Shown in pieces: positions 8,769 to 49,070 of a DNA stretch of 64,000 nt. The stretch lies in the IMG/VR virus record IMGVR_UViG_3300023493_000006, positions 10,434-74,433 of that record; one strand, given 5' to 3'. Positions within the stretch are counted from its first letter, which is position 1; each line of letters opens with the position of its first letter. Position numbers and translations under genes: made by a program. The DNA is from a virus. Below the pieces are notes generated by a model. The model was not told the DNA's origin, did no database searches, and was given only the letters and a program-made list of their open reading frames with translations.

Positions 8769-8840
8769 TCTGCGTCAGATTTATCTGACATAATAATATC
8801 GTTAGATATTATTTAAATATAATTCTTTCTCTTTTTCTTA

Positions 8841-9241: not shown

Positions 9242-9254
9242 TTACCGAAATTAA

Positions 9255-9551
9255 TTATTCAAACAAGCTAAATACGTCTTTGCAAAATTCCTCATAGTCG
9301 ATATTCCCGACCAGTGGCATTTTATTTCTCAGCTTTTCCATTGCTTTAAAAAACTTTCCTTGGTCTTTATTCCAGATTTTACAGAAAACAAGAAGATACT
9401 TCTCTTCCTTATGTCCATATTCTTTTCCAAAATTCACCCGAATTTTCTCATTCTTAAAAAGTTGGTCTGCCAGATACTCTTCTGTATCTGCAAAAATGTA
9501 TTCGCTGCGGAATAAATGCTTTTGGATTAAGATGTAATTTTTATATGACAT
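9255..9551 (-). CDS. Hypothetical protein (98 aa)
   Basis: ORF with no recognisable motif. Confidence 0.4.
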   Translation of the reverse strand: MSYKNYILIQKHLFRSEYIFADTEEYLADQLFKNEKIRVNFGKEYGHKEEKYLLVFCKIWNKDQGKFFKAMEKLRNKMPLVGNIDYEEFCKDVFSLFE

Positions 9552-9637
9552 GATATTCCTCCCTGTGAAAAAGGTTCCATTTTAAATCGAACCTTTCCAG
9601 ACCTCATTTTAAATGCGGGCTGTCTAAAAATTCAAAA

Positions 9638-10309: not shown

Positions 10310-10462
10310 CAAGTTGTTTTCCTCCCCAAAATAAAAAAGAGCCGCCAAGTAAGATAAAAATTCCTCAAAATTGAGAAATATTAATTTCTTCTTAGCGGCT
10401 CAAAAATCAAAACCGTGTGTACTTCTTCATTAAAGAAATCATACCACACAATCAGTCAAAAA

Positions 10463-13400: not shown

Positions 13401-15127
13401 GCGTCATCACCAGCTGTTTCTATACCACCTAAATTAGATACGATATCACTAACTCCACTCTGCGAGCCTTTTAGTTTCTTTCCCATCAATACATACATGA
13501 AGTTGCGAAATGCATTTGCGGCTTGCATAAGTTTTGACATGAGCGCATTAAGTGCTTGAATAGCCGGGAGAATTCCAGCGATTAAACCTTGCCCGATTAC
13601 TGCAGAAAGTGACTGGAAGTTCAAGGTAAGCAAACGAACCTGGTTCGCCCATGTTCCAGATGTCCTTGCGAAATCCCCTTGCACATCTCCTGTAACTGAC
13701 ATTAAATAGTTGTATCGAAGAGCAACTTTTTCAGCTTGGGACATTGCGTTATAAGATGTTGTAATTCCCCTTGAAAGAGCATAAGCCTCCATATTTGCAA
13801 CGGATAAATTAATTCCCAATTGTCTTAAAGGCTCAATTTCCCCAGAAATTCCAGAGCGTATTTTCTGAAAAGCTGTATCAGTATCAATATTGTAAAATGA
13901 TGCAATATCCCCGGCTAATCCAGCAAGAGAAATTGACATTTTAGAAGCTGCATCTTGCGCAACACCAGACGATTTCATCATTGCCATCATGGTTCCAGAA
14001 TATTGCTTTGCTGCCAATTCGGATAATCCAAATTGTTCTTTGGCCGTAGAAGCAAATTTGTAGGCTTCATCTGCCATGCTTCCAAAGGAAACATCTACAA
14101 CATTTTCGATTTCTGTAATAGCAGAGCCAAAACCAATTGCACTTTTTCCTAAATTTGCCAGACCACGAATAGCCTTAAAACCGATAGCAGTTTTAAGCAA
14201 ATTTCCGAGATTAAAAGAAGCGGTTTTAATTCCAGAACTACTATTCCCGAGACGTTGAAACCATCCAATAATGCCTTTTACCCCGGTTCCAATTATAGAA
14301 GAAGTTTTACTAACAATATTACCAAGGCTAGATGTTGCAGATGATAATTTAGAAAACGCACTGGATATAGAATTTGTAGCGGAATTTACCTTTCCCCCTG
14401 CATTAGCCAACTTTGCCAGTGCTTCCGTCATGCGGATGGTGTTCTCACTTATTTTAGGTGCAGTTTTCATTACATCGAAGAAAGACAATACTTCCTTTGC
14501 TAGTGTTCCAAGCTGGCTTGACGTTTGTCCGATTCTATTTCCAGAGCTTGCCAATTGTGCAATAGACTGAACTAACCTATTTACAGGTTCAGATATATCG
14601 CCAACGCTCGTAAAACTCTCTACGATTGATTTAAGATTTCTTCCAAGCCCAGGCAATTCAGCTGATACATTCGCAATATATTCACCGGAATTGGCTAATC
14701 TAGCCATTGAATTGACAAAGCGATTAACACCGGAAGATACATCTGGAATCTCTGTCAAATTGCTTAATTTATGGATTATTTCTCCGAGTTTTCCTGTGTC
14801 AAAACTGCTTATATCAACCTGGCTAAGTCTATTGATTGAGTTAATAACCGCATTAAGGCCAGAACCTTTATAGTTTACGCCACCCATTGTCTTTATGGAA
14901 TTTGAGAATTTTCCAATTCCAACAGCAATGCTTGTCATTTTCCCTATATCAAGTTCTTTTAGTTTTCCAAGTTCCCTTACACAACTACGTAATCCGTTTG
15001 TATTAACTCCGCTTAATGCGGAATTAACTTCTGTGAGTTTATTTGAAAGATTAGTCAGCGCACGTACTGCTTTTTCTGTACTACTGCTAATTTGTATATC
15101 AAGGGTATCAATGGTATTGTCAGCCAT
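10463..15127 (-). CDS. Tail tape measure protein (1554 aa)
   Basis: Very long alpha-helical, low-complexity protein following the chaperone genes. Strong RBS AGGAGGG. Typical TMP position and composition. Confidence 0.85.
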   Translation of the reverse strand: MADNTIDTLDIQISSSTEKAVRALTNLSNKLTEVNSALSGVNTNGLRSCVRELGKLKELDIGKMTSIAVGIGKFSNSIKTMGGVNYKGSGLNAVINSINRLSQVDISSFDTGKLGEIIHKLSNLTEIPDVSSGVNRFVNSMARLANSGEYIANVSAELPGLGRNLKSIVESFTSVGDISEPVNRLVQSIAQLASSGNRIGQTSSQLGTLAKEVLSFFDVMKTAPKISENTIRMTEALAKLANAGGKVNSATNSISSAFSKLSSATSSLGNIVSKTSSIIGTGVKGIIGWFQRLGNSSSGIKTASFNLGNLLKTAIGFKAIRGLANLGKSAIGFGSAITEIENVVDVSFGSMADEAYKFASTAKEQFGLSELAAKQYSGTMMAMMKSSGVAQDAASKMSISLAGLAGDIASFYNIDTDTAFQKIRSGISGEIEPLRQLGINLSVANMEAYALSRGITTSYNAMSQAEKVALRYNYLMSVTGDVQGDFARTSGTWANQVRLLTLNFQSLSAVIGQGLIAGILPAIQALNALMSKLMQAANAFRNFMYVLMGKKLKGSQSGVSDIVSNLGGIETAGDDASSGLDDATSSAKKLKKALSVLPFDQLNQLADNSDNSGTASKSLGSGLGDLADSFAGIQDSLDEVLTVDETPINKWAAKIRKAFINKDWQGLGSTIADMINVGMQKIYEVINWNNVGPKITEFVNAFTTAFNSMVSGIDFDLIGRMLGSGINTAVNTLNLLLGDGGIDFSGIGAKLSQLLKGAIKEIDWTGLGTLIGNSFMASWKMLSGFVKDMSKKDGAGITGWGKLGTAIGKALNGAIKKIDMNTIADALSGLLNGAFESLKSFTETFNWDDLATKIRDGIAKFIKETNWKENGQALGDFISHLCTALKDSLTKDTFYEFGQGVGTFLGELPWGEILGTAADLILGGLSSAFNGLVDGIKEDHPLVGSLVDILGKAFLVVNVLKVSGIGELAWNLIDHIGGKIIAKENADLIAEKLADVLGDGTSGAKEAIKDLGDAAESAGNGGFTTLAEKIKNLGDVAQTAGGQFQGFWGYATNLGATAFVMEGLGQVKKAMDFKDSTADAFNDFEVVRKALKILEDQTGISGDKFIGLGGDLKNVKDNAFDFDGQLQTVETSLENLGISSDTFKQALKQAMEESDTSTNSHVSNINEYIGTMGTEFDNAKSALERLSNQAVITPTQFDELSAVLQQQESSGATARAAFQALMDKMAEMGIDTGKVIKAFSEDVPKSSSTMSKSVETATKSISSNSKTGFGIASAAVSTAMAGMKKSTESTMPSIWSKIKNTNDDVETNSKTNWGNSASAVSTALGTMDTDTKDIMGKVMTTIQSYWSSVLINTNQIWEKASGKVDTETGKMKTYTESNLSGISDKIKRLFNVNLTSIGRETAQSFADGMKQVHLPTLTYYISEWRKHDLGGGRTSSTPVYKPNWYAKGGLFNGAQVIGIGEAGSEAVLPLENPRTMKKIADSIVSSSDGSMGLTKEEMAKAVAQGVAMAMSMNSGNNNPQYIMNSIILDGSEIAKAVTKAQNDTDSRFKPSPAY

Positions 15128-25508: not shown

Positions 25509-26546
25509 TTATTCCCCCGCCTTGGTACCGATTACGATACCGCCGTTAGCTTTTGGTGCAACAGGAACAAACATACCGGATGCTTTTGTCCATACTGCAA
25601 CTGGGTCTGGTGTAGCCCACATGGAAAGAGTAACAAAGGAACGATTCTCTTCCTGGATAAACTGTCTGTATTCAAGCTCTTCTGGAGTTACGCCCCAAAG
25701 GCCGGAACCAAAGGAACCATTCGCATTTGCTTCATACAAAGTAAACACATCTTCTTTGAAGTATCTTCCTGTTTTCAAAGTTCCGTCTGCTTTTCTGTAA
25801 CGATATTTTTCATCACAACGATCAATTGTGAATCCGTACTCCTGCATAAGCAGATTTGTAAGCTCCTGTTTTGTCAGAAGACGTTTGTTTGCAGCTCCAA
25901 GAACTGCGGTCTGCATTGCAGTATTGTTCCGCATGTAATTAATCATCTTGAGAGAAGTAAGAGCTTTGTTTACCACATATCCGTTATCTTCTGCAATGGC
26001 TACCATCTTTGAGATATCGCCCATGATATCTGCGTCTGGCTTAGACCAATCAGTAAGTGTTACTTTTGCATCAGATGTAACGCCGTAATCAATGCTCATA
26101 TCCACATGATTTTCCTTAATTTTTACAATACCAGTGGAAAGGAACTGGCCTTTCATTACATTCGCTCTTGCGACTACGCCCTCAAAAAGATTGGCTGCAT
26201 CGTCAAATACAAATTTTTTGAGATTATTGTCATCTGGAACACCATTTTCGATTGCTTGCTGTAATCGCTCAGACTGATTGATTTTTCTCTTGATGAAAAG
26301 TTTCTCGGTCAATACCTTTTCAAATCCAGGTCTGGAACCGATTTCTGCTTCAGTATCAAGTGCATGAACAAAAGCTACCTCTGGCAGTCGCTGTCCAGCC
26401 ATAAGTCTGTAATACTCTGCTTTCAGATACTGTGTTTTTGTATCTGGGAAAATGGTACCAAGGATGCCAGGTCTTTTTACATCAAAACTCTGGGAGAAAT
26501 TAAGTCTCTCTTCCTCTGTGATTGTTTCTAATACATTAAATGGCAT
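25509..26546 (-). CDS. Major capsid protein (lambda gpE-like / HK97 fold)
   Basis: 345 aa following the scaffold and gpD-like genes. Sequence character of Phage_cap_E family. Confidence 0.7.
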   Translation of the reverse strand: MPFNVLETITEEERLNFSQSFDVKRPGILGTIFPDTKTQYLKAEYYRLMAGQRLPEVAFVHALDTEAEIGSRPGFEKVLTEKLFIKRKINQSERLQQAIENGVPDDNNLKKFVFDDAANLFEGVVARANVMKGQFLSTGIVKIKENHVDMSIDYGVTSDAKVTLTDWSKPDADIMGDISKMVAIAEDNGYVVNKALTSLKMINYMRNNTAMQTAVLGAANKRLLTKQELTNLLMQEYGFTIDRCDEKYRYRKADGTLKTGRYFKEDVFTLYEANANGSFGSGLWGVTPEELEYRQFIQEENRSFVTLSMWATPDPVAVWTKASGMFVPVAPKANGGIVIGTKAGE

Positions 26547-36520: not shown

Positions 36521-36694
36521 TCACCTCGTGCAAATTAAGAATATGTTCAGTCCAAACACCATTTCTAACAGTATGTAAAAAAGCATTTGTGGTGAATTAA
36601 TTTTCGTATCTTCGAGCGTTGCCAAAATTCCAGCAATAACAATTACGAAGAACGAAAGATTTGATGCGACTCCAATTACATTAAGTGCATTCAT
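36521..36694 (-). CDS. Small hydrophobic two-TM peptide (57 aa)
   Basis: MNALNVIGVASNLSFFVIVIAGILATLEDTKINSPQMLFYILLEMVFGLNIFLICTR. Strong RBS GGGGAGGAAAAAAACA-ATG. Confidence 0.4.
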   Translation of the reverse strand: MNALNVIGVASNLSFFVIVIAGILATLEDTKINSPQMLFYILLEMVFGLNIFLICTR

Positions 36695-37079
36695 TGTTTT
36701 TTTCCTCCCCTATTAAGAAGTCCAGAATTTTTTCTGCAATCTCTTCCTCTGGCTCAAATGGCATTCCACAGTAATTGTAGGATTCTAAAGCCGATTTTAG
36801 GCTTGATTTGAAGCCATTGTAAATTTCTCCATGTTGTAACAGTTCGTGCCTTAAAACTGAAAATGCATCAGTAATTGATTGAGAAGTGACACTAATTTGT
36901 GCCAAGCACTCCATTTCAATGTCTGGAACAGCCATCATTTCAAACTCAAATACTGGAATTTCATCTACTGCGGTATGGAAATTTATTGATCTTACTCTCG
37001 GAACTTCATTTCCATCAATGAAATATTTTGTGCCGAGCCAATCATTGAGGTTGGGGTTTGTGATTTTTACTAAAGACAT
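36681..37079 (-). CDS. Hypothetical protein (132 aa)
   Basis: Start MSLVKITNP (RBS AAAGGGG). The ORF track gives a longer overlapping version. Confidence 0.4.
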   Translation of the reverse strand: MSLVKITNPNLNDWLGTKYFIDGNEVPRVRSINFHTAVDEIPVFEFEMMAVPDIEMECLAQISVTSQSITDAFSVLRHELLQHGEIYNGFKSSLKSALESYNYCGMPFEPEEEIAEKILDFLIGEEKNNECT

Positions 37080-37461
37080 CTTCGCGCCCCTTTCTTTTAG
37101 TTTCACAGTAGAGAAGGAGGTGTTTCGCAATCTCTTCCAACTGTAGAATGTTGTATTTTGGAATTTCCCATGTTTTCTGCTCCAATAATGAAGACAGTGG
37201 AATTTTCTCAGTCGGTAGTTCGTTAGTTACTGTGGCATTGATAAGCATAGACGCTACATCAATGGGGGATTCGGGAAGACTATCCTTGTTATCACTTATT
37301 GGTGCGTATAGCATGGATAACTTTTTCCATTCTCCGTTTTCCTTTGAAAATACTTCTCCATTTTGTACTTTAAGTATTCCAGTAGCATCTCTTGGAATAT
37401 ACTCTTCTTTTTCACATGAACGGACATCATTCCCAATACTGTATAAAAAATAATTCATCAT
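37042..37461 (-). CDS. Hypothetical protein (139 aa)
   Basis: ORF. Confidence 0.4.
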   Translation of the reverse strand: MMNYFLYSIGNDVRSCEKEEYIPRDATGILKVQNGEVFSKENGEWKKLSMLYAPISDNKDSLPESPIDVASMLINATVTNELPTEKIPLSSLLEQKTWEIPKYNILQLEEIAKHLLLYCETKRKGREDVFSKNHKPQPQ

Positions 37462-37886
37462 CCTTCTTCCACCTCCCCGAAATATTTCTTGTAAATATTA
37501 TGGCCGCAATACCACAGATGTTGCATCACCAAAATTTTATCAATACATTCCAAATCATAATACATCGCTCTGTACTCGGCGGTTCTGTCTCCGTTTTCAT
37601 CAACACTATAACCAGCTAATTCAGATTTTGATTTTGCGCCAAACCATCTACCGTTCTTTGTAACAAACAAAGAAAGATTTCCATATTTACAAACATATGT
37701 GGCAGTTTGAGTATCATACAATCTGCCATCAGCTAATATTGCTTTTGCGTGAATTGGCTTCACCAGTTTCCGAATTTCCTGGGATTCCTGTCCAACATTT
37801 TCATATGCTTGGTTTGTTTCGGAAACGCCTTTTTTATTTTTTGAGAAAAATTTAAGCACGTCTTTTCCTCCCGAAATATTCATCAA
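37458..37886 (-). CDS. Hypothetical protein (142 aa)
   Basis: ORF, ATGA-coupled to the downstream gene. Confidence 0.4.
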   Translation of the reverse strand: MMNISGGKDVLKFFSKNKKGVSETNQAYENVGQESQEIRKLVKPIHAKAILADGRLYDTQTATYVCKYGNLSLFVTKNGRWFGAKSKSELAGYSVDENGDRTAEYRAMYYDLECIDKILVMQHLWYCGHNIYKKYFGEVEEG

Positions 37887-38018
37887 CTGCCTGTCTTACA
37901 ATATCCGATACACTCCTGTCTGTTCGGTTCTTCTCTTCCAGGAGCCTTTTTTTCTGTTTTTCGGAAAATCGGATGCGGATGGATTCGGATTGTGGGTTTG
38001 GTTTCATGAGCATTTACC

Positions 38019-38486
38019 TCAACTTACAATTTCAATGGGATATCCTAAGTATGCTTCCAACTCTGAAACAGTCAGTTTGCGTGGTTTCTTTATTTCAACA
38101 TAAGCACGCTGTATGATATTGTCTGTTGTCTTTGCGATTGCCTTTCCAGTATAACTTTCAAGCTCTTCGTTTGCATATACATTCAAATGTTCATATCCAT
38201 ATGCCCGGCACCATCTTGCAGCTGAATCAACAATTTTTCTTAGCTCTTCTTGCTCATCACCAAACAGCTCCGAATATCTAACTGCCTTGTTGAAATCGCT
38301 CGAACTTATTTCATAAGGAGCTACAACATGTTTATATGGACTTCCAATAAAATGAAAGTATCTATGCGATTCCATTGCTTTTTGGCCTTTTGGCAAGTTG
38401 AACCCTTGAGCTATTGCTTTTTTAAGCAACTGTTCTGATTCAACATTGTTTTCTGTAACAATGCATTTGTTTGTAAAATCAATCAT
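38019..38486 (-). CDS. Hypothetical protein (155 aa)
   Basis: ORF. 8-nt overlap with the resolvase gene. Confidence 0.4.
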   Translation of the reverse strand: MIDFTNKCIVTENNVESEQLLKKAIAQGFNLPKGQKAMESHRYFHFIGSPYKHVVAPYEISSSDFNKAVRYSELFGDEQEELRKIVDSAARWCRAYGYEHLNVYANEELESYTGKAIAKTTDNIIQRAYVEIKKPRKLTVSELEAYLGYPIEIVS

Positions 38487-39069
38487 CTTTATCCCCCTCT
38501 AAAAGTTTATATAGCGTGCTTCTTGAAACTCCCATAATCTCGGCAAATTGTACTTTTGTTATTTCCCCTCTTTGCCAGCTACGTTTAGTTTCATTGAAAA
38601 GTTCTTTATCTATCTCTTTTTTGGCACGGCCTTTATATTTTCCTTGCGTCTTTGCTATTTCAATACCTTCTTTTTGACGCTGCCTAATGTTTTCTCTTTC
38701 TCTTTGCGCTACATATGAGAGAAGCTGCAAAACTATGTCTGCGATCAATGTTCCTGTCAAGTCTTTATTTTTTGTAGTATTAAGTAACGGCATATCCTGT
38801 ACAATAATATCCGCTTCAATCTCTTTTGTGATTTTTCTCCATTCAGCAATAATCTCTTCGTAGTTTCTTCCAAGTCGATCAATCGAATGGATTACCAGAA
38901 TGTCACCTTTTTGAAGAGAAGCAATCATTTTCTGATACTCTGGGCGATTGAAGTCTTTCCCAGATTTTTTATCCATATAAATTTTCTCAACACCATCTGC
39001 TTTCATTGCTTCAATCTGTCTCGCTTCGTTCTGATCTGCTGTTGAAACTCTTACATATCCTACTTTCAT
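38479..39069 (-). CDS. Small serine recombinase (resolvase/invertase family)
   Basis: MKVGYVRVSTADQN...ILVIHSIDRLGRN catalytic domain (Ser in VRVST). C-terminal HTH VQFAEIMGVSRSTLYKL. RBS AGGAG. Confidence 0.85.
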   Translation of the reverse strand: MKVGYVRVSTADQNEARQIEAMKADGVEKIYMDKKSGKDFNRPEYQKMIASLQKGDILVIHSIDRLGRNYEEIIAEWRKITKEIEADIIVQDMPLLNTTKNKDLTGTLIADIVLQLLSYVAQRERENIRQRQKEGIEIAKTQGKYKGRAKKEIDKELFNETKRSWQRGEITKVQFAEIMGVSRSTLYKLLEGDKDD

Positions 39070-39206
39070 ATATACACGCTCCTGTTTCTTTATAAAACAA
39101 TTATACACTATAATGTGTGTGCTTTCAATAGCTTTTTACACGTTTAAGTGAATTTTAATTGATTTTTATAACATTTGCGTTTATTATGTGAGTAGGAGGT
39201 GTTTAT

Positions 39207-39440
39207 ATGGTATCTCAAAAAATTAAGCAAATAATGAAAATGAAAAAAATTACAAATATTCAAGTTGCTGAACATCTTGGAACTTCACCACAAGCACTAG
39301 CTAACAAGTTTTCCAGAGAAACGCTTTCTGCATATGAGCTTATAGCCATCCTTGACTTTCTTGGTTGTCAAATTTCTGTTGAAGCATTTCCAGATATCAT
39401 AGTAAAATTTAATAGCAATGATCTGAAAAGAGAGCCTTAA
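39207..39440 (+). CDS. XRE-family HTH transcriptional regulator
   Basis: ITNIQVAEHLGTSPQALANKF helix-turn-helix. RBS AGGAGG. Followed by a GAGAGCC..GGTTCTC-T7 terminator. Confidence 0.7.
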   Translation: MVSQKIKQIMKMKKITNIQVAEHLGTSPQALANKFSRETLSAYELIAILDFLGCQISVEAFPDIIVKFNSNDLKREP

Positions 39441-39504
39441 TGGTTCTCTTTTTTTATGGGAGGCTGCACTTTAGGGTGTCCTCCTTATCTGTGTGACTTC
39501 CTTT

Positions 39505-39720
39505 CTAAATCAAATAACTCATTATCAAGTCTCTAATAATTTGTGAAATACTTTTTCCAGATCGAAGAGATTCCTTTTCAAGAAGCATTCTCATATCATC
39601 ATTTACTCGAACTCTTATTGAATCTCCCTTAGGGTCTGTAGTTGGTCTCCCTTTTGTCATATCATCATTCCTTATATATGTAGGACAAAACACAATAGGT
39701 TCTTTATTCGGGCTACTCAT
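39505..39720 (-). CDS. Ribbon-helix-helix (CopG/Arc-like) protein
   Basis: SIRVRVNDDMRMLLEKESLRSGKSISQIIRDLI. Confidence 0.5.
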   Translation of the reverse strand: MSSPNKEPIVFCPTYIRNDDMTKGRPTTDPKGDSIRVRVNDDMRMLLEKESLRSGKSISQIIRDLIMSYLI

Positions 39721-39724
39721 TCAG

Positions 39725-39850
39725 CCTGTATAGAGTTTTATATATACCCCCTCCCGGTCATCCAGTGCGGACGCTGGCAAGTCAGCCCACCGCCCCATGG
39801 GACCCGCTGCCCTTGCCTGGTCGCTGTTTATCGCAGGCCTTCGGCAGTAA
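39725..39850. other. GC-rich structured noncoding element (multiple hairpins, UUCG tetraloop) in an AT-rich context
   Basis: CCAGUGCGGACGCUGG, GCCUGGUCGCUGUUUAUCGCAGGC and GCCUUCGGC hairpins. Local GC far above the flanks. Confidence 0.35.
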
Positions 39851-40001
39851 TCAAGGGAATGCTATGCAAAATCTATTGTAATATTGCACAAAAAACAGTG
39901 TTTTATAAAATGTCTTTTTAGGGTGTACCCTATTTAAACATTGCGTATCACTAGATATAGAATCCGTTTTCTCGCAATCACAACATATAGTATTTTTACT
40001 G

Positions 40002-40592
40002 CTATAACTCCGGCTTTTCCATCTCTGGAAGCTGTAAAGCGGCTTTGTGCTTCTCTGCGATCTGCTGCGCGGTCTGCTGTGGTACGCCGTACTGTTGTGT
40101 TGCTTGTACTGGTGCCGTTTCTGCCATGCCATAGGCTGCTTTTGCAACAAATATCAAATTCGCATTTGTTCCGGTCTGATTATGTAATCTATTGATTGCG
40201 CAGTTTTTACAAATATCAAACCATTTTTTAGCCGTGTCACCATGTGATGAGTTTGTTCTATACACTCCATTCATCCAGTCAGTAAACGTTGTACGATTAA
40301 TCCCAACTAAAAAACTAAATACCTCCAATGTTGGCAATACATGATATTTACTGCATAATCTCACATAAGTATTAAACATTTTATCTAATAGCTCTATATT
40401 GTCATTACTTGGCTTTTGTATATGATCTGCAATATAAAAAATCATATCTACAAAGCTATCTGATACTTCTTTCTTATAGTTTTCGCTATCTGGTGATATA
40501 CATAATACAGTATTTATATATTCATCAGCATATATATTAATATTATCTAAATAGATATCTACGTCTTGTACATTTACTGTATTATCTTTCAT
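40002..40592 (-). CDS. Hypothetical protein (196 aa)
   Basis: ORF with a Q-rich C-terminus. Confidence 0.4.
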   Translation of the reverse strand: MKDNTVNVQDVDIYLDNINIYADEYINTVLCISPDSENYKKEVSDSFVDMIFYIADHIQKPSNDNIELLDKMFNTYVRLCSKYHVLPTLEVFSFLVGINRTTFTDWMNGVYRTNSSHGDTAKKWFDICKNCAINRLHNQTGTNANLIFVAKAAYGMAETAPVQATQQYGVPQQTAQQIAEKHKAALQLPEMEKPEL

Positions 40593-41341
40593 GTTATCAC
40601 CTCACTTTAACACGTTAATTTACAAATAAAAAAGAGAATGTCACCGGGTAAAGCTTATTCCCGGAAGGCTTCCGGGTGTTCGGGTACATTCTCTAAAACT
40701 CAAATTAAAAAAATATTCTGTTTTCTTTGTTGCTGATACCTTAGCACAGTTTTTAATATCTTGTCAAATTTAATTTTGCATAAAATAAAACCATCTATTT
40801 TGTCAATAATTAATAAATAATAACTGGGGTATTATATTATAATCTTTATTTATATTTATATCTTATATATTATTATACGGTACTGTATAGCATATCTTTT
40901 AATAAACTCCAGCTTTAGGAATCTAGGAAGGGCAGAGAATAGTTATATAATTATATATAATATAAGGGCGGCTACATTTTCATAGATTTGCATAATAAAA
41001 GCCAGACCTTCCAGGAGTTTCTATCCGGCGTGATCTGGCTTGTTATGCGTGTTATTTAATTAACGATTCTGTGTACTTTCAGCCTCTGCCCTTCCTGAGT
41101 TCCGTCAGCTCTCGTTATCTGATAGCCTAAAGAAGTTTTAGAAAAATGTCAAGCGGTATTTTAAAAATATTTTTCTTGACAATTTGCTAAAAACTGTGTT
41201 ATTAAAATATTAACAGGCTCGGCGGCGGTCTGTACTCTGTCCATAGCCGCCACAAATAAGTATTTTAAAGCCCTAGGAATTAATCCCGGGGCTTTTTCTT
41301 TGGCTTGTATTATCTATTATTGTGTATTTCGTACAAGTCTA

Positions 41342-41626
41342 TTATAGTGTATTTTTTCTTTTATACTCCATAATATCACTAGGCTGACAATTCAACAATT
41401 TGCATAGATTGCATATAACTTCACAAGTTACATTTTCATTTTTAGTCAACTTTGCAACGGTATTAGAATGTATTCCGTTATTTTTCAGCCACTGTTTATT
41501 CAGCTCTTTTTTATCCAATATTTGCCATAGTTTGGAAAAGTCTATATATCCATTAGCTCCATAATTAGCCATTTCTCGAACCTCCTTTATATAATACATG
41601 ATAATAGTTTTTTCTATTTTTGTCAA
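41342..41626 (-). CDS. XRE/Cro-type HTH regulator
   Basis: NGIHSNTVAKLTKNENVTCEVICNLCKLLNCQPSDIMEY HTH_26-like. Confidence 0.55.
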   Translation of the reverse strand: MTKIEKTIIMYYIKEVREMANYGANGYIDFSKLWQILDKKELNKQWLKNNGIHSNTVAKLTKNENVTCEVICNLCKLLNCQPSDIMEYKRKNTL

Positions 41627-41933
41627 TGTCTATTATTGTGTACTGCATGCACAATTTAGGCTGCTTGAAAACATCTATTTTCGTGTATATTTTTTATTGA
41701 CTATTCGTCTATTATCGTGTATTATATAACCATCAACAGAGAACACAAGAAACAAACAACCGGAACCGCCCGAACCACTCAACACAATGAGGACATAGGA
41801 ACCGGCACCGATTAATTGAAAAATTCTAGTTCCTGGACAAAATAAAAAAAGCCCGGTCGACTTCCAAACCAAACCGGGCACCAAACTAAAAAGAAAGGCA
41901 ACCCCATTATAACAGGGGCGAAGGTAAAAAACA

Positions 41934-42320
41934 ATGACAAAATACAATTATCTGGAAGCAGTAAAAGAAGACGTTAAAAATTATATTGATAGTGAAATTA
42001 ATTTCACAGACTTTGACAGCTTGGAAGAACTGGAAGAAAAATTGAATGATGAACTTTGGACAGAAGACAGCGTAACAGGCAATGCAAGCGGCTCTTATTA
42101 TTGCAATTCTTACAAGGCAGAAGAAAGTATAGCGCACAACTGGGACTTGCTCGAAGAAGCCCTTGACGAGTTCGGACAGAATAACATAAATGTTATTGAA
42201 AAGGGCGCAGAATGGGCAGACGTAACAATCCGTTGTTACTTATTAGGGATCGCAATTTCTGAAGTACTGGACGATCTCGAAGAAGATTTTGACGAAGCAC
42301 ATAAAGAAATGGAGGCCTAA
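41934..42320 (+). CDS. Highly acidic protein (possible DNA-mimic / anti-restriction-type)
   Basis: D/E-rich 128 aa (EINFTDFDSLEELEEKLNDELWTEDS...VLDDLEEDFDEAHKEMEA). Confidence 0.4.
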   Translation: MTKYNYLEAVKEDVKNYIDSEINFTDFDSLEELEEKLNDELWTEDSVTGNASGSYYCNSYKAEESIAHNWDLLEEALDEFGQNNINVIEKGAEWADVTIRCYLLGIAISEVLDDLEEDFDEAHKEMEA

Positions 42321-42323
42321 AGC

Positions 42324-42536
42324 ATGAAATATCATTACATAGCAATTTCAACACGCACAAACAATAAAAACTTTGCGTCTGTTCTTCGGGTCTCTAGCTC
42401 TGACAATTTATTATTTTCTTTGCAAATCCCCGGCATTACTTCCGCAAATATTTGCAGCACGAAAAAAGAAGCTGAAAACGTTGTTGACTTCTGGAACAAG
42501 TGTTACAAGACAAATAAAACTTATGGAGGGTTTTAA
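42324..42536 (+). CDS. Hypothetical protein (70 aa)
   Basis: ORF. Confidence 0.35.
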   Translation: MKYHYIAISTRTNNKNFASVLRVSSSDNLLFSLQIPGITSANICSTKKEAENVVDFWNKCYKTNKTYGGF

Positions 42537-42537
42537 A

Positions 42538-42915
42538 ATGATAACAATCAAGAAAGCCACGCAAGCGCAGACAATCGCCGCCATAAAAAGCGGCGACTTT
42601 TCCGCAGTTGATGCAATCAATAAAAAAGCTGAAAAGGAAGCAACGGAAATTTTCGCGGCTGTTGCTGTCGGCGTTATCAAATTAGTGTATTGGGATATGT
42701 CCCCAGTAAAGCGCCGGGATGGTAAAAAGTCTGTAATGCGGTACGCCCTGCACAGATCAACGAAAAAAGAAGACTGTTTACAACTCTCCTGTATGGAGCT
42801 TATCGGCGGCGAGATCATCCCCACAAGCGACCAACAATTTAAAATTAATGATGATTACGACCGCCGGGAATTTTTTCGCAGTCTTCCTGCTGTTACAAAA
42901 ATGACTTTTGAATAA
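42538..42915 (+). CDS. Hypothetical protein (125 aa)
   Basis: Start MITIKKATQ with RBS GGAGGG. The longer 42373 start is rejected. Confidence 0.4.
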   Translation: MITIKKATQAQTIAAIKSGDFSAVDAINKKAEKEATEIFAAVAVGVIKLVYWDMSPVKRRDGKKSVMRYALHRSTKKEDCLQLSCMELIGGEIIPTSDQQFKINDDYDRREFFRSLPAVTKMTFE

Positions 42916-43008
42916 TAGGGGGGCTTAAGATTCCGGGCAAGTTTTTGTACTGTTTATTTTTGGCTTAGCGTATGATATAATAACATAAAATAGGGGGGGT
43001 AATACTAT

Positions 43009-43437
43009 ATGATAATGTTAAAAATGGAAAAATGGGAAAGTATTGTAAATGAAACTATTAAGCATTTTTTTGATAATTATAAAGTATTTGATGATAATAA
43101 CAAAGCTTTAGAAAATAAAAGCCTGTATCAATATATTAATGATATTTATGAAGAAGGGCCAGAAACAGAAATTCTGCACTTTCTATTTACTGGCGACAGC
43201 GAATATATCCAATTTGCGGGAAAGTACAATATTTCTTTATACGATGAATTTTCACAAGAACTTGAAAATAAATTGATTGATGAATTTTATTCCCTTAATC
43301 AAGAACAATTCTGCGACGATCTCGAAAATTTTACAGATTATTTTTTAAGTGAACACACAATTTTATTGAAAACATATATTTATGATATTCTTGATGGTTT
43401 TACGGCTAAAAAGTTAAAATGCATTATTTTTAAATAG
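43009..43437 (+). CDS. Hypothetical protein (142 aa)
   Basis: ORF followed by a GC-rich hairpin + T6 terminator (43442-43500). Confidence 0.4.
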   Translation: MIMLKMEKWESIVNETIKHFFDNYKVFDDNNKALENKSLYQYINDIYEEGPETEILHFLFTGDSEYIQFAGKYNISLYDEFSQELENKLIDEFYSLNQEQFCDDLENFTDYFLSEHTILLKTYIYDILDGFTAKKLKCIIFK

Positions 43438-43666
43438 TTTTCACCGCTTCCCGGTATCCAGTCCTGCGGCACGTTCACGGCGTGCAAGCGGTTTTTTGGT
43501 ATTCTGCCAGATGCACCTTGCAAAGTTAATACCATAAGTCAATCAATTAACGTGCTATTTTAGCCGTAAATGGCTTTTAATGCTGTTAATGGTGATTTAT
43601 GCAGTATTTTCATTTTGAGCCGCTTATGAGCCTTTAAAACGCTTTTTAGCGTCTTGCATGGTTTAT

Positions 43667-43701
43667 TGACTGTCTGTGGCTATAGATGTATAATAGCCTT
43701 G
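43667..43701 (+). promoter_or_regulatory. Consensus sigma-70 promoter TTGACT-N17-TATAAT
   Basis: ttgactgtctgtggctatagatgtataat read directly. Lies in a ~1-kb noncoding region with GCTAT and TGTCCGGGC repeats. Confidence 0.55.
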
Positions 43702-44463
43702 TATAGCTATGTGCAGCTATGCTTTATTTGTGTACCGTGTAAATTGGTGCATTTTGTCCGATTATGTGCGTAGCTTGTCCGGGCCTCCCGGTGATCTGTC
43801 GCAACTGTCCGGGCTATATATCAATTAGGGCTATATGACTATATTGTGATATGCTTGTATAACGCTGTATTTGCCCTTTTAAGGCGTTTTATAATCGTAG
43901 TCAATAAAATATAGGATAAATACATTACAAGCTATTTAAGGCTTATTTTGTAAGAGTATTATTGCATTTTTAATCACTGCATTATATGCTGTTTGATGTC
44001 ACAATCTATTATCTGTTGACTGTTGGTTCTGATCTGCCAGGGCTACGGCTGGCTTCGTTGGTGTCTGGCATCGTCAAGACTTCATCAGATCGGCATGGTA
44101 TCGGCTTCCAGTACTGTCCATGGTTTGTTTGTGCCGGCGGAAAAGTCGCAACTGTTCAAGGCTTCAATAGTTGCAACTAACTTGTGAATGATTCTTAAAT
44201 TCCAACATCATTTTGCAAGCCGAAAATCAAAGAAATCCAGAAAAAAAAGTGGCAACCAGAAAAAATCTCGCATTTTCTAGTTACCACTTAAATTTTAATT
44301 TTGCACAAATATTTCTATAGAGTAAAGTTTCAAATGATTCAAAATTCACAATTTATTTAATTCTTCTTTCTTTCGTGTTCCATATCTTCTATGGGATGAT
44401 TTTTCTAAACGTTCCGTTCTCTTCATTTGGGACTTGGAAAGTTTCTTCTTTCTCTGGTAATTA

Positions 44464-45144
44464 TCAGTCGTTGTTCCCATTCACGCTCTCCTTGTTAATC
44501 TTCTGATTCCTGGTTTCAAAATTTATAATCTTCGTGTCTGTTTCTAATTCTTCCGGGATTCTTCCAACAATGATAACTCGCAGTGGCTTCAATCTCCGTT
44601 CCATCTCCTTGAAACCAACGCAAAATTCCAACCGTGCCGCCTTGCTCTTTACTCTTCCATTGGTGCAACAGGAAACTGTACTTCCCTCTGGTAGCCCATC
44701 AAAGCACCAGTCCCAACAGTATTCCGGTAATATGCTTACGTTCGGAATTACCGGAATATCATTCAAGATCATGTAGTGAGCCAGTGCATGATTGCGGTAT
44801 TTATTCCACAGGCACATTACCAGTGGCATTCCATTCTTGCCAACCGATATGCTAAAATCTGGCATAATGACTGCATGAAAACATTTTAAATGCTCCATAT
44901 ACTTGTCTGGCTGATTCCATAATCTTTGAAACTGCACATCGTCTACGTAGAAGTTTACATCCAGTTCCCAGTGGTTCTTAATCTTTCGGCTGAAGCTCTC
45001 CGCAAAGTCTACAGTATCTTTTCCAGGATGGATAAAGGTCTTTGGAATTTTCGGTATTCCGTAATTACCATCAAGGTCTGCATCCGTGATTAAAAACTCT
45101 TTCATTACGTCATAAGCTGTATGTATCATTGATTCCACTCCCAT
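44464..45144 (-). CDS. Hypothetical protein (226 aa), downstream of the serine recombinase
   Basis: ORF. Cys/Trp-rich central region (CWDWCFDGLPEGSTVSCC). Confidence 0.45.
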   Translation of the reverse strand: MGVESMIHTAYDVMKEFLITDADLDGNYGIPKIPKTFIHPGKDTVDFAESFSRKIKNHWELDVNFYVDDVQFQRLWNQPDKYMEHLKCFHAVIMPDFSISVGKNGMPLVMCLWNKYRNHALAHYMILNDIPVIPNVSILPEYCWDWCFDGLPEGSTVSCCTNGRVKSKAARLEFCVGFKEMERRLKPLRVIIVGRIPEELETDTKIINFETRNQKINKESVNGNND

Positions 45145-45152
45145 TTTTTCTC

Positions 45153-46865
45153 TTATAGTGCTAAAAGGTACTTATATTTGTAAAATACCATATGTTGTGT
45201 CTTGATGCAAGTTTTCCTACTAAATATCTTGTGTTGTTCTGAATGTAGAGTGAAAATCATATCGTCAGAACGGCGCAAGGGAAACCCCCATTTTTCAAGG
45301 CTTCCAGACCTTAATTGAAATGTCAGTGTTGCACATGTAGCCGCCAACGGTTCCACGGTAATTTTCTCAAAAAGTTCATTGACAATCTGCCTGTTAATTT
45401 CTTGTGGAGTAACACCTTTGAACTTTTCTAACTGTTCTTTAATAGCACTTAATTGTATTTCTACTGGCTCTGGACTTTTGGTATTTTGGATTTCTAGAAT
45501 ATGGCTCTCAATCTGCTTTATCTGCTTTACGTATTCTTTATTTCTTGAAATAAATTCATCATCAGATATTTTTCCATCCAGATTATATTCCAGTATTTTT
45601 TCGCGTTTCTGTTTCAATGTGTCAATCTGTTTTTCAAGTCGTGATATTTCACTTTTGTTGTCTGGGATGTTTTTTATTGTAGACTGTAAGATTTCAAAAT
45701 ATTCTTTCAAAATATTATCAATATTTTCAGAAGATTTATTAATCAAATCTGCAATTACTTCTTTCAATTCTGATTCTGCCAGCCCAAACGAAGTACACGA
45801 AGCTGCTCCGTTTTTTATTTTATAGCTGCATACCCATCGAACATCTTCTTTTCCTCTGATATAATGTTGCTTCATCCAGTATGGAGCTCCGTCATTTGAG
45901 CAGAAAAGTTTTCCAGTGAAAATATTTTCGTTTTTAAAAGAGGTTCTTCTTGATTTTATAGCTTCTCCACGCTCTCTTAAATATGCGTTTGCCTTTTCCC
46001 AGGTAGTTTCATCAATGATCTGCGGTACTCTGGAACCATCATCCTTAAACATTATCCATTCTGACTGCGGAAGAAATTCTTGTTTCTTGGTGAACATATC
46101 GACAACCTTTACTTTTCCTCCACAATAGTATCCTTTGTATTTTGGATTCCGAATAATATTTTTTATGACATCTCTACTGATCTTACCGCCTTTGAAACTT
46201 CTATATCCCATATTCCAGAGTTTTTTTTCGATTCTTGGCGTAGATATTCCGGAAGCGTAATCTTGAAAAATCATTCGAACCATTTCTGCTTCTTCTGGAA
46301 TCAGTTCGAGCTTTCCTTGATTGTTTGAGTATCCATACATTCTGTGTCCGAGAACAACACCGTTTTTGATCGACTGTGCGTGTCCAAACTTTACTCTTGA
46401 AGAAAGTTTTCGGATTTCGTCCTGCGCTACCCCAGCCATAATAGTAAGTCGGAACTCACTATCATCATCAATAGTGTTAATTCCATCATTTTGGAACCAA
46501 ACGCATACGCCGTAAGACAACAATTCTCTGGTGTATTGGATGCTATCAAGAGTGTTTCTCGCAAATCTTGAAATTTCTTTTGTTATAATCATGTCAATTT
46601 TTCCAAGCTTTGCATCTCTGAGCATTCTTTGGAATTCTTCTCTTTTATCTGCGTGCATTCCAGAGATACCATCATCAATGTAAGAACCGGCAAACTTCCA
46701 TCTGTTGTTAGAATGTATCAGTTCTTCGAAATGTTCCTCCTGGTGCTTAATGGATGCTTGCTGTTCAACTTTTTCAGTAGAAACCCTGGCATAATAAGCA
46801 ACATTTAGTTCAATGTCGTAAATAGAGCAATTTCTTAATTTTTCTCTGACATAATAAATATTCAT
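45153..46865 (-). CDS. Large serine recombinase (resolvase catalytic domain + recombinase domain + zinc ribbon + coiled coil)
   Basis: Start MNIYYVREKL (RBS AAGGGAGAA). YARVSTEKVEQQASIKHQ...DDGISGMHADKREEFQRML...DMIITKEISRFARN. Cys cluster CSNDG..C..C..C. Confidence 0.85.
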   Translation of the reverse strand: MNIYYVREKLRNCSIYDIELNVAYYARVSTEKVEQQASIKHQEEHFEELIHSNNRWKFAGSYIDDGISGMHADKREEFQRMLRDAKLGKIDMIITKEISRFARNTLDSIQYTRELLSYGVCVWFQNDGINTIDDDSEFRLTIMAGVAQDEIRKLSSRVKFGHAQSIKNGVVLGHRMYGYSNNQGKLELIPEEAEMVRMIFQDYASGISTPRIEKKLWNMGYRSFKGGKISRDVIKNIIRNPKYKGYYCGGKVKVVDMFTKKQEFLPQSEWIMFKDDGSRVPQIIDETTWEKANAYLRERGEAIKSRRTSFKNENIFTGKLFCSNDGAPYWMKQHYIRGKEDVRWVCSYKIKNGAASCTSFGLAESELKEVIADLINKSSENIDNILKEYFEILQSTIKNIPDNKSEISRLEKQIDTLKQKREKILEYNLDGKISDDEFISRNKEYVKQIKQIESHILEIQNTKSPEPVEIQLSAIKEQLEKFKGVTPQEINRQIVNELFEKITVEPLAATCATLTFQLRSGSLEKWGFPLRRSDDMIFTLHSEQHKIFSRKTCIKTQHMVFYKYKYLLAL

Positions 46866-46946
46866 AGTGCATTTCTCCCTTAATAAACAGGGAGTGGAAT
46901 CATATAAAGTATAACACCTCATATAAATCCACTCAATACATTGTCG

Positions 46947-47132
46947 TTACTTTCTAATGCTGATTTCAGCTTTAATTTTATCTCTTGTTTTCTCATCTAT
47001 CAGACCAAGTGAGAACATTCTTTCGTTTATGGCATACAATATAGCTTTTTCCATTAATTGTCCCTCCATATAATTATCTCGTTTTAAACGCTGTTTTTCT
47101 TTATCTTTTGTATGCCCTATAATTTCTACCAT
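46947..47132 (-). CDS. Hypothetical small protein (61 aa)
   Basis: ORF. Confidence 0.35.
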   Translation of the reverse strand: MVEIIGHTKDKEKQRLKRDNYMEGQLMEKAILYAINERMFSLGLIDEKTRDKIKAEISIRK

Positions 47133-47183
47133 TATTCTCTTTTGAACGATTCTGTGCTATTTTAAATACACAATTATCACGTT

Positions 47184-47396
47184 TTACAACAAATCAAAGA
47201 TATTGACCTGTCCATCAATCTGAGATTCTTCCAGATTATAAAATTTGCAAGCTATATAATCTGGATTCCAATCAATTTCCAGTTCGTATTGCAAGCACCT
47301 TGGAAATTTGCCACCATAGAAGAATCTGCAATCAGAACAGGTATGCTGATAAACTGTACCGCCAGATTGCTTATACATTTCGCTTATCTTTCTCAT
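47184..47396 (-). CDS. Cys-rich small protein (70 aa)
   Basis: CSDCRFFYGGKFPRC...CKF. Confidence 0.4.
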   Translation of the reverse strand: MRKISEMYKQSGGTVYQHTCSDCRFFYGGKFPRCLQYELEIDWNPDYIACKFYNLEESQIDGQVNIFDLL

Positions 47397-47635
47397 AGAA
47401 TCACTCGCTTTACTCTTGACTTTCCTCTCGCTTTCTTCTTGAAGATACCATTTTTAACACAATCCCTTGGATCACATCCTCTGCTATGTTCTTCAATCAA
47501 GATATAATCACAGGTTGCATTTGTACTCCATGCATTTTCGCTCTTGCTGTAATAGTCGCATTTCGAGCATTGTCTCCGCTTTAAGACTATAATTTCAGTG
47601 CTTTTTAATTCTCTCCATGGTTTTCTATCTGGCAA
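47393..47635 (-). CDS. Cys-rich small protein (80 aa)
   Basis: CSKCDYY...CDY...GCDPRDC. Confidence 0.4.
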   Translation of the reverse strand: MPDRKPWRELKSTEIIVLKRRQCSKCDYYSKSENAWSTNATCDYILIEEHSRGCDPRDCVKNGIFKKKARGKSRVKRVIL

Positions 47636-48165
47636 TTTTCAGCACCTCCCAATCTGGCAGTATCTATAATTTTTAAAAGGTCTGGACTTAGTTTTCTTCG
47701 TTCTTGTTCTCTTTGCACTTCTGCCCGATACGTCCTTTGAAAATTTGATTGAACTACACTCCACCATGTACCATCTGCATTTTCAGATACCGCCCATTCT
47801 CTAAGTTGTGCCGGACTTGATACTGCTTTCTGAATGATTTTTGGAAGCTTATCAAACTCTGTTTCTGCGTTATATGTAGAGTTCTGAATAGCTTTGCATA
47901 CCTTTTCCCAGGCTTCTGTTTCATTCAGCTCTTCCTTTTGCGGTGCAACGCTTTGTGCGCATTGCCTTAATGCGGCTATTGATGGCTCTTTCCATTCCGT
48001 CTGCATATATTTCTTTAATCCGAAACTTAAAAGCTTGTAATCCAGGTCTTTCAGTAATCCGTACCAAGTATCAAAAGCATATTGATCTGGCAGAAATGCT
48101 GGGGAAGTGTACACAGCTTTCATTGCCTTTACCAGTACCGCCCATTCTTCTCTTGTCATACCCAA
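47605..48165 (-). CDS. G39P-like replicative helicase loader
   Basis: MTREEWAVLVKAMKAVYTSPAFLPDQYAFDTWYGLLKDLDY...EPSIAALRQCA parallels the G39P N-domain pattern. Directly downstream of the replisome organizer. Confidence 0.45.
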   Translation of the reverse strand: MGMTREEWAVLVKAMKAVYTSPAFLPDQYAFDTWYGLLKDLDYKLLSFGLKKYMQTEWKEPSIAALRQCAQSVAPQKEELNETEAWEKVCKAIQNSTYNAETEFDKLPKIIQKAVSSPAQLREWAVSENADGTWWSVVQSNFQRTYRAEVQREQERRKLSPDLLKIIDTARLGGAENCQIENHGEN

Positions 48166-49070
48166 TTATCCACCTCGCTTACCCTGTTTTGGATTTTCTC
48201 CATGTAGCTTTGCGGTTTACTTCCGGCTTTATCAAGATAGTTCCCTTCAAATACCTTCGCAAAGTTACCGGGCTTTAAGAACCAATCGAAAGTTATCATC
48301 CAGCCTTCTTTGTTCTGGCCTTGTAAGAAGCTGCTATGGCGAATGTTTTCAATAGCTTCTAAGATATCGTCCATATGGTTCTGACGGATTCTGGCTTTCA
48401 CTGCTTGTTCTCGTTTTGATGTCATTCTTTTTACAGGATTAATACCAAATTCTTCCAGAGTATTCCATTCATCAATGATTCGTTGGACGTCAGTCTGACG
48501 AATAGTATCTTTAGATACTATTAAATCATTTATATCTTTTTCTTTATCTTTATCTAATTCTATATCTAAATCTAAATCTAATTCTAAATCTTTATCTAAA
48601 CCTATATCTTTATCTGAGTGCGTCTTTTGTTCGTCTATTTTGCGTCTTTTCTGCGTCTGCCTGTTTGAACGCTCTATTAGTTTGGTATCATCAATAGAAT
48701 TTCCATTTGTCAGTGAGTAACTTCCGTTATCTTTCAATAGCAGTTTCTTTTTTTCGTCAGTGTATGAAGTTTCTATATATCTGTCTCTAGACAGGGTGTT
48801 GTGCATTCTCCAATGCTTAATAACAATCACGCCATCATCAAATAAGATAACAAATCTCTTGGCAATCAGAAGCTTCAAATCATCATCATTTGCACCTATT
48901 ATTTTTTCAATCCTCTTTGGGTTTCCAATAAATCCATCATCATCAGCTCGCATATTTAAATGAAAATAAAGGCATTGTGTTGATAATGGCATATCAAGAA
49001 AAGCGTCTGTATCAACAATTTTCATGGTAAACATTCTTTTATTTGCCAATTCTAAAATTCCTTTCTCCAA
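48156..49070 (-). CDS. Phage replisome organizer with internal DKDLELDLDLDIELDK iteron-encoding repeats
   Basis: N-terminal LSTQCLYFHLNMRADDDGFIGNPKRIEK (phage_rep_org_N-like). Repeat DNA at 48541-48660. Confidence 0.65.
   Translation of the reverse strand: MEKGILELANKRMFTMKIVDTDAFLDMPLSTQCLYFHLNMRADDDGFIGNPKRIEKIIGANDDDLKLLIAKRFVILFDDGVIVIKHWRMHNTLSRDRYIETSYTDEKKKLLLKDNGSYSLTNGNSIDDTKLIERSNRQTQKRRKIDEQKTHSDKDIGLDKDLELDLDLDIELDKDKEKDINDLIVSKDTIRQTDVQRIIDEWNTLEEFGINPVKRMTSKREQAVKARIRQNHMDDILEAIENIRHSSFLQGQNKEGWMITFDWFLKPGNFAKVFEGNYLDKAGSKPQSYMEKIQNRVSEVDNWV
48541..48660. repeat. Intragenic iteron region (ATCTAA/ATCTTT hexamer-based repeats ending ATCTGAGTGCGTCT..TGCGTCTTTT). Candidate phage origin
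   Basis: Direct repeats read in the sequence. Homologous to 8841-8940. Confidence 0.6.

Follow-up and report, generated by a model that had tools for sequence, protein, structure and literature searches.

A large serine integrase with its attachment site inside its own gene, and its target in a spore-protein gene, in an uncultured gut phage

In a 64,000-nucleotide stretch of viral DNA (IMG/VR record IMGVR_UViG_3300023493_000006, positions 10,434 to 74,433; the whole stretch is called the window here), a gene for a large serine recombinase (LSR) lies in the middle of a phage genome, next to a large noncoding block. A first-pass annotation, made from the letters alone, had noted this arrangement and had proposed that the phage attachment site (attP) lies in the noncoding block, or else that the LSR belongs to a nested mobile element. 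We find that the LSR is the integrase of the whole phage, and that its bacterial attachment site (attB) lies in the conserved ...GGYMVK/KMIE... coding region of a gene for SASP, a small acid-soluble spore protein, of the alpha/beta type, in Lachnospiraceae of the Blautia group. The features around the recombinase gene are as follows.

45153-46865, minus strand: LSR, the phage integrase, 570 amino acids (Pfam, PHROG and SprA alignment)
45228-45280: attP, an imperfect inverted repeat of about 53 bp, where identity to the integrated forms switches
45236-45242 and 45265-45271: the attP arms GTTCTGA and TCAGAAC
45153-45254, minus strand: C-terminal tail of the LSR, residues 538-570, lost on integration, with LTI in its place
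45090-45250, minus strand: ultra-conserved stretch (160 nt) on the P' side, covering the P' arm, the LSR tail and the start of the DUF4417 gene
44464-45144, minus strand: DUF4417 protein (Pfam DUF4417, 7e-38; phrog_8680, 1.5e-59)
45128-47160, minus strand: exchangeable integration cassette of about 2 kb, comprising a 61-aa open reading frame (ORF; 46947-47132), the LSR gene and attP

The LSR ORF (45153-46922, minus strand) encodes 589 amino acids when read from the first ATG at 46922; gene callers on hundreds of related contigs chose the start at 46865, which gives 570 amino acids. That this protein is a large serine recombinase, as had been annotated, is borne out by its Pfam domains and by its match to the PHROG integrase family phrog_95 (E 3e-111). 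The catalytic domain (PF00239 Resolvase, 1.3e-31, residues 23-170), in whose translation the catalytic-serine motif YARVST can be read, is followed by PF07508 Recombinase (1.8e-18, residues 190-299) and PF13408 Zn_ribbon_recom (3.7e-9, residues 315-375). The LSR also matches PDB 3g13 (3e-37), and its residues 68-499 align to residues 63-501 of the 545 of SPbeta SprA (PDB 9dxh); this alignment spans residues 405-492, a putative coiled-coil region for which Pfam gives only a sub-threshold DUF7096 match.

The exact LSR was found on five metagenome contigs, and relatives of at least 94% identity on at least 124 IMG/VR contigs, mostly of 76-85 kb, in which the gene lies at many different offsets. 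A protein search added well over a hundred further variants on contigs of 76-86 kb, the matches listed being dominated by relatives of at least 97% identity. The phage is thus very common in human-gut metagenomes. When 85 relative loci (numbered with L below) were mapped onto the window, 43438-48595 was usually contiguous; three loci (L083-L085) broke off at 45250, within the LSR gene. Past this point L085 runs into bacterial genes, including an alpha/beta-type SASP gene on the opposite strand that closes with codons read from the LSR gene in reverse complement. Searching proteins with the N-terminus of this SASP returned an intact SASP of 77 amino acids from sources named Clostridia, Blautia spp. 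and Ruminococcus sp., and chimeric forms ending ...GGYMVKIISSERRKGNPHFSRLPDLN, which are recorded on more than 350 contigs. Empty attB sites with the intact 77-aa SASP are present at L086-L089. The target is a PF00269 SASP gene, and the phage inserts after codon 56.

The four sites, written in the orientation of the SASP gene, which is that of the plus strand of the window, read:

attB: GGTTATATGGTTAAAA / AGATGATCGAGGCGCAGG
attP: GTTCTGAATGTAGAGTGAAAA / TCATATCGTCAGAACGGCGCAAGG
attL: GGTTAAAA / TCATATCGTCAGAAC
attR (predicted): GAATGTAGAGTNAAAA / AGATGATCG

The symmetry centre of attP falls at 45253/45254 and its AAAA crossover core at 45253-45256; the arms agree at 15 of 26 positions around the central AA. 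The core common to attP and attB is AAAA, or GTTAAAA in some variants, and the identity between the window and the integrated forms changes exactly at AAAA. attP is kept in 80 relatives, with one polymorphic base adjoining the core. attL consists of the SASP 5' part and phage DNA from 45257 upward, and was found at L083/L095, L084, L085/L093, L094, L090, L107-L112 and L123-L126. One of these (within L107-L112) lies on a 366-kb contig of an isolate genome, Ruminococcus sp. AF31-8BH (GCA_003460605.1, QTVN01000002.1), with attL near 266.5 kb. Over all attL contigs the bacterial left flanks represent at least three different contexts.

The predicted attR was then recovered on two IMG/VR contigs (L091, L092) and two long metagenome contigs (L104, L105), where phage DNA up to 45256 is joined to the SASP 3' part, followed by a flank 99-100% identical to the empty locus. 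The pattern search gave no match with the window's own core-adjacent base and gave matches when N was allowed at that position: phage variants with A or T for the G beside the core yield exactly the attR sequences that they predict. The four sites, including these core-adjacent variants, obey attP x attB = attL + attR. A further metagenome match (L103) was rejected as a chance match in an unrelated bacterium.

An odd locus was seen on a 2.8-kb contig of low coverage (L106, 2050-2300), where the SASP gene carries an insert of only about 86 nt, made of the first 49 and the last 37 nt of the prophage, so that attR directly follows attL. It is either the scar of a prophage deletion or an assembly artefact.

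An inverted repeat around a central dinucleotide, which the first-pass annotation had proposed to look for, lies at 45228-45280. Comparison of attL and attR with 43440-44460 placed no prophage end there; all junctions, recovered along with the empty attB sites from independent contigs, fall at 45253-45256, within the recombinase gene.

The remainder of the window is the map of a siphovirus-like phage with nearly all genes on the minus strand:

10463-15127: tape measure protein (TMP)
25509-26546: major capsid protein (MCP)
29753-31447: large terminase subunit (TerL)
35209-36223: four tRNAs
38479-39108: small serine recombinase (Resolvase and HTH_7; PHROG 'DNA invertase')
39207-39440, plus strand: XRE-family regulator gene
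48156-49070: DnaD-like replication protein

Phage genes do flank the recombinase on both sides, as had been stated, with the DnaD-like gene on one side and, on the other, at 10-31 kb, the genes for TerL, portal, MCP and TMP; the tRNA cluster, the small resolvase and the XRE and ribbon-helix-helix (RHH) regulators that had been listed are likewise all present. What the window shows is a temperate phage, about 80 kb long, in unintegrated, attP-intact and circularly permuted form, a possibility that had already been raised. Since the window shows the unintegrated form, an integrase in the middle of the genome is what one expects. One attP-intact copy (L116; ERZ15609843 NODE_49) lies on a contig of 158,961 bp, which is close to two genome lengths (2 x 79.5 kb) and suggests a concatemer or a double-circle assembly. 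BLAST searches of the region and of the noncoding block against INPHARED, for near and for distant relatives, gave no DNA match.

Taken together, we consider it very probable that the window is an unintegrated phage of about 80 kb whose LSR integrates the whole phage from an attP inside its own gene into an attB within a SASP gene. Several observations count against this. No retrieved locus (these span about 20 kb) carries both junction types; attP-intact assemblies are far more numerous than the integrated ones retrieved; a scan of the GTDB species representatives gave an LSR of only 24% identity and no close one; and no recombination directionality factor (RDF) was identified for the LSR, the 61-aa ORF that travels with the cassette (46947-47132) being a candidate only. 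To these is added, for the noncoding block described below, that the body of the transcript predicted there evolves at least at the synonymous rate, which makes a sequence-specific RNA function doubtful.

The crossover lies within LSR codons 537-538, and integration exchanges the last 33 residues for 3, which shortens the protein from 570 to 540 amino acids. The free-phage LSR ends ...DDMIFTLHSEQHKIFSRKTCIKTQHMVFYKYKYLLAL (DDMIFTLHSEQ...LLAL) and the prophage LSR ends ...DDMILTI before the stop codon; gene callers called the 540-aa products at attL. Thus, because attP lies inside the integrase ORF, free phage and prophage encode different isoforms. Neither distant LSRs nor the PHROG profile align past about residue 522, and SprA, with its 545 amino acids, reaches to about the counterpart of residue 540; the swapped tail therefore lies beyond the canonical fold. 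The prophage form, with about the length of SprA, may well stay functional and, together with an RDF, be competent for excision.

The SASP in turn keeps residues 1-56, and its last 21 residues are exchanged for 20 encoded by the phage; a replacement SASP gene was sought in the window and none was found. On integration the LSR gene comes to lie at the attL end, where it converges with the 5' part of the SASP gene, and the DUF4417 gene, the noncoding block and the regulator region come to lie at the attR end. The gene nearest to attR in the prophage is then DUF4417, which in the window is downstream of the LSR gene. Spanning the end of the LSR gene and the start of the DUF4417 gene is the ultra-conserved stretch (45090-45250), whose variability in 65 variants is 0.002-0.016 per site at all codon positions, versus 0.03-0.07 in the LSR body; this constraint exceeds what coding alone explains. 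The stretch holds a possible promoter (TTGCAT-17-TATTTT) and a putative ribosome-binding site of DUF4417, and it would appear to provide the expression signals that DUF4417 needs once integration parts it from the LSR gene.

The closest LSR in INPHARED, that of MT837325 (L096; MT837325.1, 1083-2774), is 43% identical. Its ORF ends ...SKKMIKAYEESMK before the stop codon, which is the SASP C-terminus in the sense direction (KKMIKAYEESMK), and downstream of it are bacterial tadA and a gene for a CPBP protease. The SASP tail and the bacterial genes indicate that this is another prophage end with a crossover inside the integrase ORF. The crossover uses the same SASP codons but is oppositely oriented, which hints at a clade of LSRs that target SASP genes.

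The noncoding block, from here on the hub, and the features at its borders are as follows.

43438-44345: noncoding hub, spacer between convergent transcription units
43443-43497, plus strand: terminator-like hairpin with T6 at the end of the plus strand gene set
43666-43694, plus strand: sigma-70-type promoter TTGACT-17-TATAAT, top-scoring match in the region
43701-43722, plus strand: palindrome or hairpin ATAGCT-N6-AGCTAT directly after the promoter, flagged as terminator-like
43776-43784 and 43806-43814, plus strand: TGTCCGGGC pair, the only two copies in the 64 kb
44248-44288, minus strand: intrinsic terminator of the LSR-DUF4417-44-aa unit, 17-bp stem and U8
44346-44480, minus strand: gene for a basic protein of 44 amino acids, pI 10.6, also called on related contigs

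A stretch without a conserved ORF is indeed present, as had been annotated, and its true extent is 43438-44345 (about 0.9 kb) rather than the 1 kb at 43440-44460; the right edge had been set too far, within what is a true gene. That the 44-aa ORF is a real gene follows from the bias of its variation towards third codon positions (0.48/0.28/2.64 for the three positions). Within the hub no ORF survives in 58 sequence variants, among which frameshifts and stops occur. ORFs of 64 and 54 amino acids, which lack codon periodicity and are broken in relatives, were rejected as coding, and so was a Cys-rich micro-ORF of 24 codons over the TGTCCGGGC repeats, which is interrupted by TGA or indels in the copies of many relatives. 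Apart from a few conserved islands the hub body is indel-rich and more variable than the third codon positions of the LSR gene. The hub is absent or replaced in five relatives (L049, L057, L068, L069 and L020).

One of the islands is the promoter. It had been described as perfect and located at 43667-43701; the TTGACT-17-TATAAT motif is there and conserved, but it lies at 43666-43694 and agrees with the consensus at 11 of 12 positions. Its hexamers are nearly invariant in the 58 variants (one has TATGAT), and promoter-like sites in general are not enriched (33 found, 27.4 expected). GGCTAT (43678-43683) and ATAGCC (43693-43698), which form an inverted repeat, enclose the -10 box, and four of the window's 33 GGCTAT sites are clustered within 157 bp (43678-43834). 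Of the GCTAT and TGTCCGGGC repeats reported earlier, the clustered GGCTAT sites and the TGTCCGGGC pair were found again, but the latter degenerates in relatives to TGTCCAGGC, to TTGACCGGGC or by deletions. The palindrome at 43701-43722, which folds at -9.6 kcal/mol with a z-score of only -1.1 and has lost one arm in a few relatives, is a candidate operator or attenuator. A second conserved island (43878-43913) contains the same TTTATTGACT context in reverse complement and may be a weak leftward promoter.

The terminator at 44248-44288 is 96-99% conserved and folds at -22.3 kcal/mol (z -5.6) when read on the minus strand, and more weakly, at -12.9 kcal/mol (z -3.1), on the plus strand; the hairpin at 43443-43497 folds at -19.6 kcal/mol with a weak z-score and is 91-98% conserved. 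The 43666 promoter would probably give rise to a noncoding transcript of about 0.6 kb, which would stop ahead of any minus-strand gene. An antisense control of the recombinase by this promoter, as had been suggested, is therefore unlikely, since the strong terminator stands between the two, even if its plus strand reading is the weaker one.

Could the hub encode a functional regulatory RNA, transcribed from the 43666 promoter and acting on lysis-lysogeny or as antisense regulator? The nearly invariant hexamers, the operator-like GGCTAT/ATAGCC flanks and the confinement of a unit without conserved ORF between terminators speak for it. However, Rfam 15 covariance models run over 43300-44600 gave nothing at the gathering score and, in a permissive search, only chance-level hits (E at least 2); RNAalifold on the 58 variants found, on both strands, only weak folds with the exception of the terminators, the consensus fold being very weak at about -17 kcal/mol over 600 nt; the transcribed body with its many indels varies more than LSR third codon positions; some viable-looking relatives do without the hub; and the terminator at 44248-44288 would halt the transcript before it overlaps with any minus-strand gene. 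We regard such an RNA as unlikely. On the sequence evidence the best reading of the hub is dispensable DNA of the cargo region between two terminators, with an orphan promoter that would be controlled by a repressor.

That the LSR belongs to a nested element of about 36500-47200, which hitch-hiked into the phage, had been suggested. In its favor, this interval is rich in regulators, harbors the second, small serine recombinase and varies among relatives. This variation is block-wise rather than all-or-none, three blocks (38004-40003, 41301-45072 and 45128-47160) each being independent. In three relatives (L118, L119 and L121) the last of these, the integration cassette, is replaced by a tyrosine integrase (PF00589, 394-436 aa; loci 680-2354): their sequence ceases to be homologous to the window at about 47161 and is so again from 45127, and the DUF4417 gene, the 44-aa ORF and the hub are kept. 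These relatives presumably use a different attB. The second block is

41301-45072: optional accessory block of 3.8 kb with an XRE gene, plus strand genes, the hub, the 44-aa ORF and the DUF4417 gene

and it is missing from four relatives (L049, L057, L068 and L069) that nevertheless keep the LSR with its tail, the tail joining the window at about 41301 after about 100-140 nt; in L020 a different cargo occupies its position. These exchanges assign attP to the LSR cassette of 2 kb; they show further that the hub does not depend on the type of integrase and that the LSR can do without the hub.

The nested element is very improbable: the att junctions of the LSR link whole-phage DNA to the bacterial chromosome, with phage DNA contiguous to attR reaching at least to window position 34018 on one 77.7-kb contig and phage DNA contiguous to attL extending past 53777 on another of the same length, beyond both proposed borders; and repeats at the proposed ends were sought and none were found. 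With such contiguity, an exchange of integrase cassettes and LSR-bearing relatives that lack the hub, no nested element is needed.

Still less credible is that assembly chimeras account for the junction contigs, with no true integration of the phage at the SASP gene. This could be argued from the intact attP in most assemblies and from the attL-attR remnant on L106. But junctions of both reciprocal types were recovered from many samples and assemblers that are independent of one another, the isolate genome among them; the palindromic site has its symmetry centre exactly where their breakpoints are, and their bacterial flanks match the empty locus at 99-100%; moreover, the 43%-identical LSR of MT837325 is likewise fused to a SASP C-terminus beside bacterial tadA. 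Finally, an attP in the noncoding block at 43440-44460, plausible as the largest noncoding stretch near the recombinase and one that contains inverted repeats, can practically be dismissed, because all junctions map to 45253-45256, the block is uninterrupted beside attR in integrated copies, and four relatives with the LSR lack it, while those with a tyrosine integrase retain it.

Near the attR end, part of the variable cargo is made up by

41934-43437, plus strand: four small genes

of which two encode acidic proteins (pI 4.05 and 4.41). Searches of the four against Pfam and PHROG gave no matches, and in relatives their position is occupied by different genes. In L068 the DUF4417 gene is reduced to a remnant of 34 amino acids. 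Between the XRE gene (41342-41626, minus strand) and the plus strand genes, an inverted repeat of 21 nt and 95% identity (41587-41607/41709-41729) flanks divergent promoter-like sites, and 41587-41729 is a candidate operator of a genetic switch.

The cassette at 38004-40003, with the small serine recombinase, a 155-aa ORF and the XRE and RHH genes, is absent or replaced in many relatives. The neighboring AT-rich, noncoding segment 40600-41340 is conserved in every relative, its sequences falling into two classes (about 95% and 80% identity), and contains nested inverted repeats (40742-40767/41176-41201 and 40911-40937/41084-41110). As an invertible segment for the small resolvase it was rejected, about 70 relatives containing no inverted copies. 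At least 12 related assemblies end inside 40686-41095, which could reflect physical genome ends, a pac/cos region or a drop in coverage.

At the other side of the window the tape-measure gene is separated from the next tail gene by a moron-like island (3856-10348), which holds, among others:

4554-5450, plus strand: secreted Ig-domain protein
5489-7060: zinc-ribbon membrane protein
7666-8298: lipoprotein-like ORF

The only long repeat in the window is a direct repeat of 86 bp and 92% identity, with one copy (4357-4442) upstream of the secreted Ig-like gene and the other (29245-29330) at the start of the portal gene. No long ORF is listed in 1-3800, and one probably extends there beyond the window's left edge.

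In its domain architecture, its simple attP of about 50 bp, its shorter and only weakly similar attB, its small identical core and its natural attL and attR, the system resembles those of the phage serine integrases phiC31, Bxb1, A118 and TP901-1. In such systems the spacing of the motif for the zinc-ribbon domain differs between attP and attB half-sites, and the outer GGCGCA motif, whose distance from the centre is about 6 bp greater in attP than in attB, fits this rule. The attP sites of phiC31, Bxb1, A118 and TP901-1 are not known to lie within the integrase ORF. For an attP inside the ORF of a serine integrase we found no report in the literature, only cases from tyrosine systems; the search was incomplete and this is absence of evidence only. 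One of these cases is IntP of Mx8, where attP lies within the integrase coding sequence and integration provides a new 3' end and a different C-terminus (PMC6070905). The likeness is one of arrangement and not of homology: Mx8 Int is a tyrosine recombinase, and the protein described here has serine recombinase domains only and a simple 53-bp site. In the integration-dependent immunity of BPs and its relatives attP also lies in a phage ORF, and the viral and prophage forms differ at the C-terminus; there attP splits the repressor gene, the tail that is removed acts as a degradation tag, and a tyrosine recombinase serves as integrase (PMC3694055), whereas in the present phage it is the integrase that is remodelled.

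SPbeta has its attP between sprA and sprB, and its att sites, like those described here, are of a simple kind, AT-rich at the core and with inverted repeats (PMC8270828). The skin and gin elements are other gene-intervening prophages of spore formers (PMC5595907, PMC5499854). As in SPbeta, skin and gin, a serine recombinase here inserts a prophage within the coding sequence of a sporulation-related gene; unlike in SPbeta, attP is inside the integrase ORF, the target is a SASP gene, and there is no SprB-like RDF across attP. SASP genes are expressed in the forespore, so that an excision specific to the mother cell could not restore their function. We found no SASP gene reported as attB, again in an incomplete literature search that yields absence of evidence only.

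A more far-reaching reading, which we put forward tentatively and with little confidence, is that the attP within the ORF acts as a state switch: the free phage would have a 570-aa integrase whose 33-residue tail modulates stability or directionality, and the prophage a 540-aa form tuned for excision. In parallel, an LSR clade would have specialised on the conserved helix-coding region of SASP genes, of which two lineages, 43% identical and in opposite orientations, may be before us. Lysogeny of phages of gut Clostridia would in this way be tied to spore DNA protection.

The first-pass observation is confirmed and its interpretation largely replaced: the LSR serves the phage itself as integrase, and the noncoding block belongs to the accessory DNA. 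The apparent anomaly of a mid-genome integrase with a large noncoding block at its side has become a defined recombination system, with attP, attB, attL and attR sequences in hand for an uncultured, very abundant gut phage with an identified host group. Three aspects go beyond the routine: a serine integrase with attP in its own coding sequence and therefore with isoforms that differ between free phage and prophage, the use of a SASP gene as attachment site, and a clean natural exchange of a serine- for a tyrosine-integrase cassette in one phage backbone. The attP/attB pair is a ready candidate for the toolbox of serine integrases. For the hosts, the SASP gene as attachment site means that lysogens of these spore-forming gut commensals carry a remodelled spore DNA-protection protein.

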